Positions 23,162 to 27,746 of a DNA stretch of 64,000 bases are shown one piece after another (position 1 is the first letter of the stretch; each line of letters begins with the position of its first letter). Below the pieces are notes generated by a model. It was not told the origin of the DNA, ran no database searches, and was given only the letters and a program-made list of their open reading frames with translations. The position numbers and the translations under genes are program-made. Source of the DNA: a candidate division FCPU426 bacterium (GTDB lineage Bacteria; Oederibacteriota; PGYV01; Palsa-1178); contig CAWIXE010000001.1 in NCBI GenBank assembly GCA_963840035.1, positions 992,001 to 1,056,000 on the forward strand. Direction: 5' to 3'.

Positions 23162-23887
23162 ATGGAAAAAGTCATGAGGTTATTGGTAATTATTGTTTTC
23201 GTAACATTGTTTTCATCGTGCGTGACAAAAGGCCCGGCCGGGCCCACAGGCCCTGCAGGCCCGCAGACTCCGGGGCTGAACTATACCAGGGTCTTCCAGC
23301 AAGGGGTATACTCAAGCACATATTCAGGACAGGTACAGGCAGAATTATGCACGTGGACATCAGGAACAACATATACAAGTAATCTCAATCCTCTGGGCGT
23401 TGGCGCAAAAGTAACAGACGGATCAGATGATTACAGGACGATAATAAAGTTTAATCTAGAAAGCTTGCCAAGTACTAAAATAATTGTTGATAAGGCCGAA
23501 TTAACACTTCATACAACATCGCTGTCAATGGGGGGTGGTGCTGATAACATGGAAATACATAAAGTTATAGCGCCATGGACTATATATTTTGCCAGGTGGG
23601 GATCGGCATCAAGCGGAGTGCCGTGGACAAACGACGGCGGTGACTTTTCGGCGGCAACCATGACAGCAAACGCCGCGTTCTACGACATTGCCGCTGACAG
23701 CGAATATACAATCGGGCTGGCTCCGGAGGTCGTTCAGGACTGGATGGAAAACCCGGCAACGAATTACGGCATGTTTCTAAAAGTTCAGGACGAACTTAAA
23801 ATAAATTTTGCGCAGTTTTATTCATCCGGAGCGGTATTGCCTTCAAACAGGCCAATGTTAAAGATTTGGTATTATACAATCGAATAA
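23162..23887 (+). CDS. Lipoprotein with a short collagen-like repeat and a DNRLRE-like domain
   Basis: Lipobox FSS-C, GPAGPTGPAGP, RTIIKFNL...AELTL, VQDWMENPATNYG, NRPMLKI. Confidence 0.7.
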   Translation: MEKVMRLLVIIVFVTLFSSCVTKGPAGPTGPAGPQTPGLNYTRVFQQGVYSSTYSGQVQAELCTWTSGTTYTSNLNPLGVGAKVTDGSDDYRTIIKFNLESLPSTKIIVDKAELTLHTTSLSMGGGADNMEIHKVIAPWTIYFARWGSASSGVPWTNDGGDFSAATMTANAAFYDIAADSEYTIGLAPEVVQDWMENPATNYGMFLKVQDELKINFAQFYSSGAVLPSNRPMLKIWYYTIE

Positions 23888-23912
23888 TAATTTAAAAATA
23901 TGGGGGGTTAAA

Positions 23913-24040
23913 ATGGTGAAAAGTTATGGCTGTTTTTATCGGTTTTATTTGTTTTTGCAGTTTTTATGCCGGGGTGCGGGAAAAATCCGACTGCGCCTCA
24001 GACGGATAATGTCAAAAGAATCAGCAAAGCTACCATGTAA
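23913..24040 (+). pseudogene. Frameshifted, truncated lipoprotein 5' remnant
   Basis: G-rich RBS. Adding one A at 23919-23922 gives MVKKLWLFLSVLFVFAVFMPG-CGKNPTAPQ, with a stop about 20 residues after the Cys. Confidence 0.5.
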
Positions 24041-24164
24041 GTAGTTTTTGAACACGAGAACGGGATTGATAATAACAAAATATTTGAAAACATTCAGGAG
24101 TACAAAATATTATTTGAGTATTAATCACGCAGGGCTTGTAACTATAGAGGGGTTTTTGCGTGCT

Positions 24165-24192
24165 GAGGCGGCGGGTAAAACCGCCGCCTTTA
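24165..24192 (+). terminator. GC-rich hairpin, probable terminator
   Basis: GAGGCGGCGG-GTAAAA-CCGCCGCCTT followed by an AT/T-rich tract. Confidence 0.55.
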
Positions 24193-24242
24193 TAATTATT
24201 TTTTTTGCCATATTCTACAGGACAAAATAGTGGCCGCAAAAC

Positions 24243-24271
24243 TTGAGAAATCAACAGTCATGTGCTATAAT
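24243..24271 (+). promoter_or_regulatory. Strong sigma70 promoter with extended -10
   Basis: TTGAGA-17 nt-TATAAT, with TG one base before the -10 box. Confidence 0.7.
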
Positions 24272-24276
24272 AGTAC

Positions 24277-24531
24277 TGAAAGAGAAAGAGAAACAGAAAG
24301 GGAACAGAAATAGCACCGGAAAGAGTCCCGGAAATAGCACGAGAACGGGAAGCGGAAAGAGCACCGGAAACAGTACCAGCAACAGGAGTTGCACCAGAAC
24401 CAGCTGTAGAAGTCCTGCAGTAGAACGGTTCTGGGGCGGTTTGGGTAAACACTCGAGAAGAACGGGCCTAACAAAAGCCTAAATGATTAAAAATCTCCTC
24501 CGAGAATGCCTGAATCGCCTCCCTTTTTTTT
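24277..24531 (+). ncRNA. Candidate novel non-coding RNA (hexamer/GGA-repeat 5' domain plus structured 3' domain)
   Basis: Own promoter, no credible ORF, hexamer periodicity, two stems with G.U pairs, ends in T8. Confidence 0.55.
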
Positions 24532-24704
24532 ATACCCCCGGATATACCCGCCACAATCCACATATTTTCTATCAAACAGCAAGATGCTTAACTACTTAAG
24601 CAAAAACAACGTTTTTTCACTCATTTATCCTGGTTTTCACGTACATACTGTGATGATTAATGCGTTAACCCCGGCATGTAAATATTTTGTCATAGGGGCT
24701 AAAT

Positions 24705-24733
24705 TTGACTTCAGTTAGACAGGGATATACAAT
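24705..24733 (+). promoter_or_regulatory. Sigma70 promoter
   Basis: TTGACT-17 nt-TACAAT. Confidence 0.6.
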
Positions 24734-24770
24734 TGATATAAGATATAAAAACATATATAGAGGGGTTTTT

Positions 24771-27746
24771 ATGAACTTTAGCAAATTTCATAGGACAACA
24801 GGGGTTGTTCATTTTTTTTCACCCCCTGTTAAACCGTTTAAACGCGATCCCGCTTATAACGCATGCATGCTGATTGTTACCGTATTTCTTATGTTTTTTT
24901 ACGATAACTGCCTGGCATGGGTAAATGCCGGCTTTGAAACCGGAGACACTTCTTCCTGGAGTGTGAGCAGGAGCGTTACAACAAGGGCGGATGTCGTTTA
25001 TACGCCGACAGTAACTGTAGCAACTCACGGAGCCGCACCGCATACGCAGGGAACCATATGCGCCGCGCCGGCTGTATGCCTTGATAAAGTGCGCTCGGGC
25101 AATTATGCGGCACAGATGCATTCGGGCCGCGGCGGGAGCGATGGATTTGACGACTGGGCTAGGATACAGCAGACTGATTTAGTTCCAACAAACGGTAATA
25201 CCTGCCTTTCTTTCTGGTTTTCTGCTGTCTTAACAGGAAAACATTATCTTTCTGACGGCGCGCCTGATGAGGACGCAAATATACTTCTTGAAGTAATAGT
25301 GAACGGCAGGGTTGTTGCCAGTCAGAGCTTTAACTATTTTACAATGCTAAACCAGCTGGTTGATGACGGCGCCGATCCGTATGGAGCGCCGGACCCCGTA
25401 GACGGCGGCGGCGATGATACGCAGGACCAGTGGCGGCACCTGCCTTGGACGCAGTTTTATGTCAACCTTGCGGCTTACGCCGGGCAAAACGCCACGGTAC
25501 GGTTTACCGCTTACGGCTGCAGCCAGGGCGGCCATGACTGCTACGGATTCCTGGATGATGTGAGCTGGGCGGCGTGCCCCGTGGTGGACATGACCCTTGT
25601 CAAATCAAACAGCCCGGCTGGCGTTGTGCACCCTAACGGGAACATAACCTATACACTGAACTATACAACAACGGGGACGGCGGGAATACTCGGGGTAAAA
25701 ATCTACGATACAATACCCCCAGGAACGTCATATGTAAATAATTCCGCTTCAAGCGTGCCGCATTATCCGCTGGTAACTGTCTACGGTGGTATGATTGAAT
25801 GGGATATGGGATACCTGCCGCCCGGAGCGTCCGGAAGCCTAAGTTTCCGCGTAAGGGTCAATACAGCATGTACATCCGTATCCAATACCGCTTCAGAGTC
25901 TGACCTGCAGACAGACGGCTTGAAATCCAACACGGTTTCCAATATTATAGACGGCTGCACGCCGACCGTGACAATGACTTCAACACGCACAATTACAAAT
26001 ACTGTTACCAAGACAATAACAAGGACCACAACACCGACTGTCACCATGACTGCTACAGCAACAAATACAAAGACGGTCACTGAAACCGTGACGCCGTCCG
26101 TTTCCAAAACATATACGGCAACAAAGAGCGATACGCCTACACATACAAGCACTCGGACGGCCACAGAGACTTCTACAGACACCGCCACATATACCCCGAC
26201 AAAAACAATGACGCCGACTAAAACGCCTACAAATACCAATTCGCCGGTTGCCTCTGTCACGCATACACCTACAGTGACTGCCACAAAAACCGCCACACCT
26301 ACACATACAATGACTTCTACAGCCACACATACAAAAACAGCCACGCAGACATTTACGGCCACGCAGACATTTACGGCCACGCAGACATTTACGGCCACGC
26401 AGACATTTACGGCCACCGGGACAACATCGTATACATATACTGCCACACCGACACATACCGCTACAAAAACTTTCACAAATACATCTACGCCGACAAATAC
26501 CAATACTGCGACTGGGACGGTTACTTCCACGCGCACATCTACGGCTACAAGTACCGCGACAGCAACTGCGACAGCCACGAAAAGCGGCACAAATACATTT
26601 ACGCATACCCGCACCGCGACACGCACGGTTACTGTTACCGTGACACTGACCCCGATGCCGACGTTTACGATAACGGCGACGCTGACGGTGTCGGAGACGC
26701 CGTATATACCGGTGCGAGGTTTTCTTTTGAGCATTAACGTATATAATTCGGCAGGCGAGGTTGTCAGGCATATAGCGGGCATGGCTACGCTTTCAAACAT
26801 GACATCCGCTGATGTCCGTATTGACGGGGATGAAAGCGCCAGCGTAATAGGGGAGAACTCAGTGATGGCCATATACCTGCCAGGTGTGCGGCCATCGGCA
26901 AATCCCGGGATGTCAGGGCTTTCATTCACGTGGGATGGAAAGAATGACGCGGGCCAGTTCCTGGCATCAGGCGCGTATATGGTAAAAATTGAGGAAATTG
27001 ACACATATGACCGTCTTACAACTTATAACAGGGATATAACCGTAATGAGGGTCCAGACCTATGCGAAGCTTAAAGTGTTCAACACCGCCGGAGAACTGGT
27101 GCGGATTATAACCGAGATGGGAAAGGTTGTCCCTGATTCGATCTTTCTTGGCAATGACGCAGAGGGGACGCAGGGGGTTAAGGCCCTGGCAAATCCTGAT
27201 GTGATAGTAATAAACAATAATAAGCCAAACGACATTAACATAACATACGGGACAGGCGATAATGACTTTATTATATGGGATGGAAGGAACAGTTTCGGAC
27301 TGGCAGTTTCAAGCGGCATATACGAACTGCAGGTTTGTTTACGGACGCGGGAGGGTTTTTTAAAAGAGGCCACAAGGACCGTGTTCATACGCAACGAAGG
27401 GAAAAAATATCTGGGAAACATAAGCATCGTGCCAAATCCTTACAGAGGGACAACAAACGGCATAGAGATACGGTGGGATTTGGGCGGGGTTACCTGGATG
27501 CCGGACCCCGGCGGCGCTCAGACAGGTGAAGTAGCGGTCCTTATATGTTCCGTTTCAGGCGAACAGGTCAGAAAGATCTACGGCAAACTTCAGGCGGGCC
27601 GGGTTGTATGGGATTTAAAAAGCGCCTCAGGAGAACTGGTTACAACAGGTATTTACATAGCGGTAATAGAGGCAAAGAGTTCGGACGGATATCTGGAAAG
27701 GAAGACGCAGAAGATCGCGGTTGCGGAGTACCGGTTCAAATACTGA
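24771..27746 (+). CDS. Large secreted protein: N-terminal beta domain, DUF11-like domain, Thr-rich linker, FlgD-Ig/CTD-like repeats
   Basis: [12 protein letters not shown]...ITYTLNY...[12 protein letters not shown] (DUF11); ~250-aa TxTxT linker; repeated V[YF]N[ST]AGE[VL]VR...WDG[KR]N...SG.Y motifs. Confidence 0.8.
26340..26416 (+). repeat. In-frame 18-bp perfect tandem repeat, four copies
   Basis: GCCACGCAGACATTTACG x4, encoding ATQTFT. Confidence 0.9.

Follow-up and report, generated by a model that had tools for sequence, protein, structure and literature searches.

Results

A predicted non-coding RNA gene with its own promoter

The window analyzed here – 64,000 bp from a candidate division FCPU426 bacterium, whose genome (G000) is 98% complete – holds a 254-nt segment set between a terminator-like hairpin, which closes the upstream gene, and a DUF11/FlgD-Ig gene with Thr repeats (Table 1). 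An initial annotation, made from the letters alone, had read this segment as a novel RNA with a U-poor hexamer-repeat arm and a structured 3' part, and most of its features proved to be as described. The promoter (TTGAGA-17-TATAAT, with an extended -10 TG) matches at 11 of 12 positions and is the best of eight sites in the interval 23400-25400; a recount again gave 6 T in the 123 nt from 24278 to 24400 and 7 GGA in the arm; the hexamer pattern has a 6-nt periodicity (P=0.0005 against mononucleotide shuffles); and the hairpin adjoining the closing helix, the T8 tract and the separate promoter of the downstream gene lie where they had been placed. The 15-bp stem said to close the 3' part (24433-24447 with 24507-24521) is present with its five G.U pairs, but it shares G24433-G24434 with the adjoining hairpin, so that the two compete, and the part conserved in homologs is the shorter helix P1.

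Table 1. Coordinates of the RNA gene, its parts and flanking signals, and of related loci (positions are those of the window unless a contig or locus is named).
Feature	Position	Strand	Remarks
Terminator-like hairpin and T-run	24165-24200	+	10-bp stem 24165-24190; closes upstream gene, would insulate RNA gene
Sigma-70-type promoter	24243-24271	+	-35 24243-24248; extended -10 TG 24263-24264; -10 24266-24271
Predicted ncRNA (type I), 254 nt	24278-24531	+	predicted start G24278 to end of U-tract
Purine-rich arm	24278-24393	+	mostly unpaired; G-N-A-N-N-R hexamers, a few 5- or 7-nt units
Hairpin adjoining closing helix	24394-24434	+	two G-Y-N-G-U-A-G-A-A motifs (24403-24411, 24417-24425), which also mark the typA leader
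3' domain	24435-24519	+	conserved; P1, P2, 1x3 internal loop, P3, P4, linker
P1, closing helix	24435-24444/24510-24519	+	
P2	24452-24455/24501-24504	+	
1x3 internal loop	A24456/24498-24500	+	C-W-C
P3	24457-24461/24494-24497	+	
P4 hairpin	24464-24480	+	
Linker	24481-24493	+	A-rich, variable
T8 tract after closing helix	24524-24531	+	predicted 3' end; T-run also 3' of P1 in homologs
Promoter-like site of downstream DUF11/FlgD-Ig Thr-repeat gene	24705-24733	+	separate; boundary, outside RNA
typA leader RNA of G000	C2:1438616-1438779	-	arm-like, plain terminator end
typA leader, example	L156:2163-2328		
Short-arm paralog	L030:1501-1586; L031:1501-1587; L032:1501-1590; L094:1492-1578		mostly after phoU

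Folding distinguishes the two strands: the plus strand is more stable than all 200 shuffles (z=-4.1), while for the minus strand 14 of 200 shuffles are as good (z=-1.5). Within the arm the predicted mean unpaired probability is 0.68 (24278-24380). Only three ORFs (64-79 aa) overlap the region and no frame is kept in homologs, which bears out the earlier judgment that it has no credible ORF. As had been expected of a novel RNA, the window contains no covariance-model match at the gathering score of Rfam 15, and the RNA region of ten homologous loci gave none at E≤10. SRP, 6S, tmRNA and RNase P RNAs – the first an SRP-like RNA that scores below the large-SRP cut-off – were each located elsewhere in G000 and have no match at this locus. 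On these features, and on the comparative data below, the locus is very probably a genuine ncRNA gene.

Poverty in U is by itself common: G000 has 68 windows of 123 nt with seven or fewer T, many of them in Thr-X coding repeats. Outside ORFs, the arm is the top-ranking G-N-A chain of the genome. Thr-X coding repeats reach great length in places (25600-26800 in the window; C3:420000-424500 and C1:1146000-1150100 elsewhere in G000); the genome has 64 genes with 6580 such units, five whole families of the phylum have none, and of the four tRNA-Thr genes in G000 two have the CGT anticodon.

Repeats of other kinds are also found in G000. A near-identical, MITE-like intergenic repeat with a GC-rich hairpin is present in at least 11 copies (sites include C1:192254, 732908, 913013 and 1123562, and C3:510111, 510320 and 512369), and perfect 7-nt tandem repeats lie at C1:708688, C1 reverse-strand offset 989519 and C2:654221, at least two of them running for more than 120 nt. 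The end bins of contigs C2 and C3 are 58-69% GC, compared to ~47% elsewhere, and are possibly foreign or contaminating DNA.

The 3' domain is conserved and covaries

The 3' domain (~95 nt) is the best-conserved part of the RNA: an interrupted rod of ~23 bp (P1, P2, the 1x3 loop and P3) carries the P4 cap and the linker and is followed by the U-tract, while junction and loop bases vary. Covariation, which the initial annotation had proposed as a check, is evident. Across 15 aligned sequences 87% of cells pair, compared to 75% in shuffles and at most 57% when the structure is slid along the alignment, and compensatory changes are found in 16 of the 28 stem pairs (8.9 in shuffles; 0 of 500 did as well); the realigned set gave 91% and 17 covarying pairs, both alignments being fitted to the model and including near-identical paralogs. 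In an independent MAFFT alignment of six sequences, 10 of 23 pairs change on both sides.

Homologs are found in one order

Searches with a covariance model of the 3' domain recovered 12 copies (69-97 bits) in 9 of the 24 genomes of the order: five of the eight genomes of family f1, the single f2 genome and three of the four of f6. Relatives thus carry the homologs that had been anticipated, with a shared promoter, T|G start, variable arm and 3' domain. No RNA homolog was found in the 75 other genomes of the phylum, where the sole match was a 40-nt terminator-like hairpin (30.5 bits); because 29-150 of ~200-2800 candidates per genome were scored, and many genomes are incomplete, such misses mean "not found". 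A DNA search of 61 genomes matched eight non-self genomes, five with true homologs and three (G043, G021 and G012) by chance; weak model matches in G003, G004, G005 and G010 (E≥0.006) were not accepted. Pattern scans returned 29 genomic, 30 metagenomic and 2 viral loci, of which ten passed the model at 49 bits or more; the remaining 51, including both viral loci, were dropped as chance, and blastn of phages and plasmids with the RNA gave no match. Metagenome locus L082 adds two further copies in tandem (L082:1489-2250, minus strand), each with its own promoter; the arm of the longer copy contains an additional hairpin whose stem is P1-like.

A like sigma-70-type promoter precedes all 15 distinct copies. 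Positions 6|7 counted from the -10 box are T|G in 12 copies as parsed, and counting from the first -10 box where two stand in tandem brings in two more (by eye), which leaves G001 as the one exception among the 15; from this conservation the start is predicted to be G24278. The neighbors of the copies are unrelated (DUF11/FlgD, Top1 zinc ribbon, nucleotidyl transferase, FecR, hydrolase, MerR and DUF1846), the next gene has its own promoter-like site in eight of ten long-arm copies, and G003 and G005, congeners of G007, have no element at the gene junction where G007 carries the RNA. For these reasons the long-arm form is predicted to be a trans-acting gene.

Three f6 genomes hold a paralog that keeps the 3' domain but has an arm of only ~30 nt. 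About 30 nt separate it from the SBP_bac_3/PAS gene that follows, an internal promoter is present in none of the four copies examined, and the paralog may be a cis attenuator. Taking all forms together, a same-strand ORF follows in 14 of 14 copies examined. Behind one and the same gene in G006 (L034:1501-1569) and G002 (L035:1501-1567) are terminators whose stem is P1-like and whose C-rich loop is similar to the internal-loop strand of the 3' domain, possibly a reduced form.

The arm is built on G-N-A units in 6-nt steps

Arms range from ~30 to ~300 nt and contain 5-22% U. Their unit is G-N-A-N-N-R: spacings between G peak at 6, 12 and 18, and 6-nt periodicity is significant (P≤0.01) in 7 of the 11 arms longer than 40 nt, with no significant period in G007, G008 and one L082 arm. 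Steps in the G register number 102 of 6 nt, 49 of 5 nt and 30 of 7 nt; such frequent slips mean that no reading frame is kept, and a small peptide encoded by the arm was ruled out on this ground.

The initial annotation had likened the repeats to those of CsrB and CrcZ, sponges of CsrA and Hfq. Repeated, unpaired purine-rich motifs and the 7 GGA of the G000 arm would suit a sponge of this kind, but the likeness did not hold. Searches of G000 for CsrA (PF02599) and Hfq (PF17209) gave no match, with controls positive; the repeated unit is G-N-A every ~6 nt rather than GGA; and the motifs in question are not conserved, GGA being found 1-11 times per arm (once only in two homologs, and not among the 12 most enriched 3-mers), ANGGA 0-3 times and AANAANAA in none of 15 arms. 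That the RNA is a sponge of the CsrB or CrcZ type, acting on CsrA or Hfq, is therefore highly improbable.

The most enriched arm 6-mer, AGAAAG (27 occurrences against 3.5 expected), complements the 16S 3' tail. Pairing to that tail was nonetheless ruled out, since all 15 arms pair with it more weakly than the mean shuffle: the arm avoids Shine-Dalgarno-like pairing. Mimicry of rRNA was rejected too, the longest word shared with the rRNA region being 11 nt, which is within chance.

A tie to the Thr-X coding repeats was also considered, with the RNA as a template, guide or mimic (DGR-, retron- or telomerase-like, or a non-autonomous mobile RNA). One arm, that of G022, aligns with Thr-X coding repeats at 74-80% over 69-96 nt; such genes are many in G000, the contexts of the RNA vary, and the L082 copies stand in tandem. 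Yet the RVT_1 match that a DGR, retron or DRT would lead one to expect is absent from G000 (divergent reverse transcriptases could be missed by this search), as is an adenine-variant target repeat: the best non-self partners agree at 19-26 of 25-37 non-A positions, and the longest exact match elsewhere is 16 nt. Moreover, 14% of arm hexamers end in ACN, and Thr-X repeats are present in 81 of 99 genomes compared to nine with the RNA. This explanation is improbable.

An arm-like leader precedes typA/bipA

Arm-like RNAs ending in plain terminators were uncovered by a search with the G022 arm and by a promoter-plus-arm pattern, which matched 10 of 99 genomes, mostly by chance, and exposed the leader of G018. 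The gene downstream of the RNA in G000 encodes a partial protein whose best match is TIGR01394 (TypA/BipA), the GTPase that E. coli requires to assemble 50S subunits in the cold (PMC8313970, PMC6962249). A model of the leader finds one copy in each of 14 of 99 genomes (12 of them the source of its training sequences), all within this order (14 of 24). Since this model, R3, carries terminator pairs only, it is nearly a sequence model. In all 13 of these 14 genomes where typA was recovered the leader lies directly upstream of it; the 18 typA loci known from 17 genomes divide into 13 with the leader, one (G009) with a terminator-like remnant and four without. A viral scan for the leader found none, and 13 typA-leader and RRM-gene loci had no Rfam match at the gathering score.

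The leader consists of one promoter and a long hairpin adjoining a GC-rich terminator, with a promoter-like site between terminator and typA in none of 13 cases. Six G at exact 6-nt steps are invariant in 12 leader sequences. In the hairpin 95% of cells pair, and 6 of 36 pairs covary, most being invariant. Because the hexamers fold into a hairpin adjoining the terminator, and no internal promoter intervenes, the leader looks like an attenuator. In the TypA tree the four genes that lack a leader form one weakly supported group (81/82) and the G001 gene groups with f6 (94/99), the bootstraps not being settled in either case; this grouping fits a leader inherited with typA, as a putative cis attenuator would be.

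In G010 two typA paralogs (L162 and L168) share a downstream leader segment, and the hexamer hairpin and terminator are found in only one of them. A different leader, with motifs that recur in several genomes of the order, precedes the gene for an RRM protein (L140, G000 C3:513570-513740; also L128-L139); three that were tested have no Rfam match at the gathering score, and it is a candidate autoregulatory element.

The free RNA and the typA leader are related

Several comparisons connect the arm of the free RNA with the typA leader. Among the non-coding windows of G000, a 4-mer model trained on the arms of other genomes gives the RNA arm the top score (39.1), followed by the typA leader (20.1) and a next window at 16.3. 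With a profile built from leaders only, 7 of 11 arms outscore every one of 200 dinucleotide shuffles, those of G007, G008 and both L082 copies falling short; against shuffles that keep the G-N-A blocks, the G000 arm remains above all 200, four others have values of 0.01-0.03 and the rest are not significant. The leader model scores six long-arm copies in their own loci, five above every background match (E=1.5e-5 in G000). The 9-nt motif of Table 1 is found twice in the G000 RNA and once in the leader; as background, the 385 kb of non-coding DNA hold 33 sites. The G002 arm closes with the word that is also found ahead of the leader terminator, and P1 then occupies the position of that terminator: here, and in G006, the 3' domain stands for the leader's terminator at the same junction. 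On this evidence arm and typA leader have related sequences.

The two RNAs also tend to be found together: eight genomes have both, six the leader only, one (G008, whose typA is leaderless) the free RNA only and nine neither, so that eight of nine genomes with the free RNA also have the leader. Predicted pairing differs, with 18 of 31 G-N-A sites unpaired in the free RNA of G000 compared to 5 of 18 in its leader.

Pairing between RNAs must also be weighed: as a small RNA, the unpaired purine arm could act in trans on a pyrimidine-rich partner, for example the typA leader hairpin (through its 3' strand) or the U-rich coding regions of signal peptides. In its kind of sequence the arm complements that 3' strand, arms share a recurring 5' word, A-A-G-A-G-A-A-A-G, that is predicted to be mostly unpaired, and in four of seven genomes the duplexes beat shuffles (≤0.05) on at least one control. 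They are not significant in G000, G002 and G007, however; the best mRNA duplex of the first 24 nt in G000 (-20.6 kcal/mol) is weaker than the best of each of five shuffled seeds; and neither Hfq nor ProQ has a match. We regard such base pairing as distinctly unlikely.

Discussion

A proposed decoy for the protein that would control the typA leader

A protein-titrating or scaffold RNA had been suggested for this locus at the outset. What stands is a stand-alone, conserved ncRNA gene with covarying stems, for which titration is still the best guess; what does not stand is a CsrB or CrcZ type. Since the arm is related to the typA leader, the free RNA is likely to serve, if it titrates at all, the leader's own protein. 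We suggest – tentatively, and with a little less than even confidence – that it is a decoy titrating a putative RNA-binding protein predicted to control termination in the leader. Both RNAs would be transcribed. The leader would be an attenuator in which about six G-N-A sites are locked up in the long hairpin, while this hairpin and the base of the terminator vie for 1-2 nt; a protein binding one G-N-A site per ~6 nt would shift the balance between hairpin and terminator, and the many unpaired sites of the free RNA would lower the amount of free protein. The 3' domain would end and protect the RNA and may bind a second partner. What is found, at the level of sequence, is what a decoy calls for: a stand-alone gene with repeated unpaired sites shared with a putative regulated leader.

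Several points count against the decoy. In G008 the RNA is present but typA is leaderless, and six genomes have the leader but not the RNA; four of the 11 arms fail to outscore every dinucleotide shuffle on the leader profile, and three have no significant 6-nt period; the pairs of the leader hairpin are for the most part unchanging, few of them covarying; G000 has one candidate target leader, few for a dedicated sponge; the best-conserved part, the 3' domain, is not explained; and shared ancestry of arm and leader need not mean a shared ligand.

The unexplained conservation of the 3' domain is the reason for retaining a further explanation, in which that domain is the functional core – either as a scaffold to which protein binds or as the closing terminator of an attenuator that has moved – and the arm an inherited, expandable and loosely constrained tether. 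The tenfold range of arm lengths, the short-arm paralog set closely before its SBP_bac_3/PAS gene with no internal promoter, the same-strand ORF behind every copy examined and the domain in place of the leader terminator in G002 and G006 all agree with it. But the genes downstream of long-arm copies have no common function and mostly have promoters of their own, junction and loop bases vary in a manner unlike that of an aptamer core, and the G register is invariant in the leader, with periodicity kept in most arms. This explanation deserves to be taken seriously, but it is unlikely.

Candidate partners

A decoy requires a protein, and no RNA-binding family that was profiled has a distribution following that of the RNAs, which is a further point against it. 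The RRM family, of which G000 has one protein, agrees with the RNA in its distribution across all eight f1 genomes but is absent from all four of f6, and is present in nine genomes without the RNA. PC4/YdbC is absent in G010, and some genomes that lack both RNAs have it. Cold-shock domains, which the initial annotation had listed for checking, are found in 22 of the 24 genomes of the order, too widespread to be informative. SpoVG is present in five of five genomes, two of which have neither RNA. All four were rejected as partners. ProQ, BglG and a NusG paralog were sought by search and not found; Rho is present. By eye, the regions upstream of spoVG and PC4 hold no arm-like array. G000 has three spoVG genes (C1:185883-186442 and C2:1128149-1128406, both on the minus strand), two in tandem behind an apparent AraC-type gene, compared to one each in four relatives.

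A fuller circuit, undescribed so far and set in a lineage known from metagenome-assembled genomes, can be drawn around the decoy, and is possible though somewhat unlikely: an oligomeric protein that reads RNA in strict 6-nt steps would control termination before typA/bipA, and the decoy would have arisen from a duplicated attenuator whose repeats were unfolded and expanded and whose terminator was replaced by a domain of three helices, on which a second factor may dock. For bacteria without Hfq, CsrA and ProQ few RNA regulators are known. The range is narrow – one order, viewed through its sequences – but within it are two related RNA families without an Rfam match, whose signature of a G every 6 nt could be used as bait for a new RNA-binding protein; they point to attenuation control of typA/bipA and suggest a route by which a decoy may evolve from its own target leader. 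Literature searches, largely outside subscription journals, brought up no description of either RNA as judged from titles and the opening of abstracts, though supplementary motif tables could hold either.

Comparison with known systems

The RNA is not a member of the CsrB, CrcZ, EutX, Y RNA or reverse-transcriptase template families. The sponges CsrB, CsrC, RsmY, RsmZ and CrcZ are stand-alone RNAs with their own promoters and many repeated purine motifs, and vary in copy number. The RNA described here likewise stands alone, has its own promoter and repeated purine motifs, and has paralogs in some genomes; unlike the sponges, it has a different motif and a large conserved 3' domain, in a genome where CsrA and Hfq were not found. 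Ro60 (TROVE), partner of Y RNA and YrlA, was found in none of the 24 genomes of the order, with controls positive. ANTAR-type sites are tandem hairpins with six-base A-x-x-G loops; by this definition such loops number none in the G000 arm and at most one in any of 26 sequences.

In Bacteroides the paralogous sRNAs FopS and GibS are reported to be bound by the RRM protein RbpB (PMC11697453). As there, paralogous RNAs with a single-stranded 5' part are found in bacteria lacking Hfq and CsrA, and G000 has an RRM protein; the difference is that FopS is described as pairing through a seed, and that RRM is absent from f6 genomes carrying both RNAs.

The typA leader invites two comparisons. Like the cATT zipper-type attenuator of plasmid pLS20, it has a long imperfect stem followed by an intrinsic terminator, while the abstract on cATT mentions neither periodic repeats nor a free paralog (PMC13401043). 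In the trp leader of B. subtilis, TRAP is reported to act through repeats, with an overlap of 0-5 nt between hairpin and terminator (PMC3064811). The typA leader resembles it in that short purine repeats recur at regular intervals along the 5' strand of the hairpin, which overlaps the terminator by a few bases, and differs in its unit, G-N-A with a period of 6 rather than 11 (G/U)AG repeats: the longest (G/U)AG chain is 0-3, compared to about 11 in TRAP-binding RNA.

Rli55 of Listeria and EutX of Enterococcus are RNAs reported to sequester the ANTAR antiterminator EutV (PMC5449094). From these the RNA in G000 differs in that it has no upstream riboswitch, its sites are linear 6-nt repeats and its putative target is typA. 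As proposed here, it would share with them the central feature: a site present in a leader with a terminator is copied on a free RNA, which is thereby able to titrate the leader's protein.
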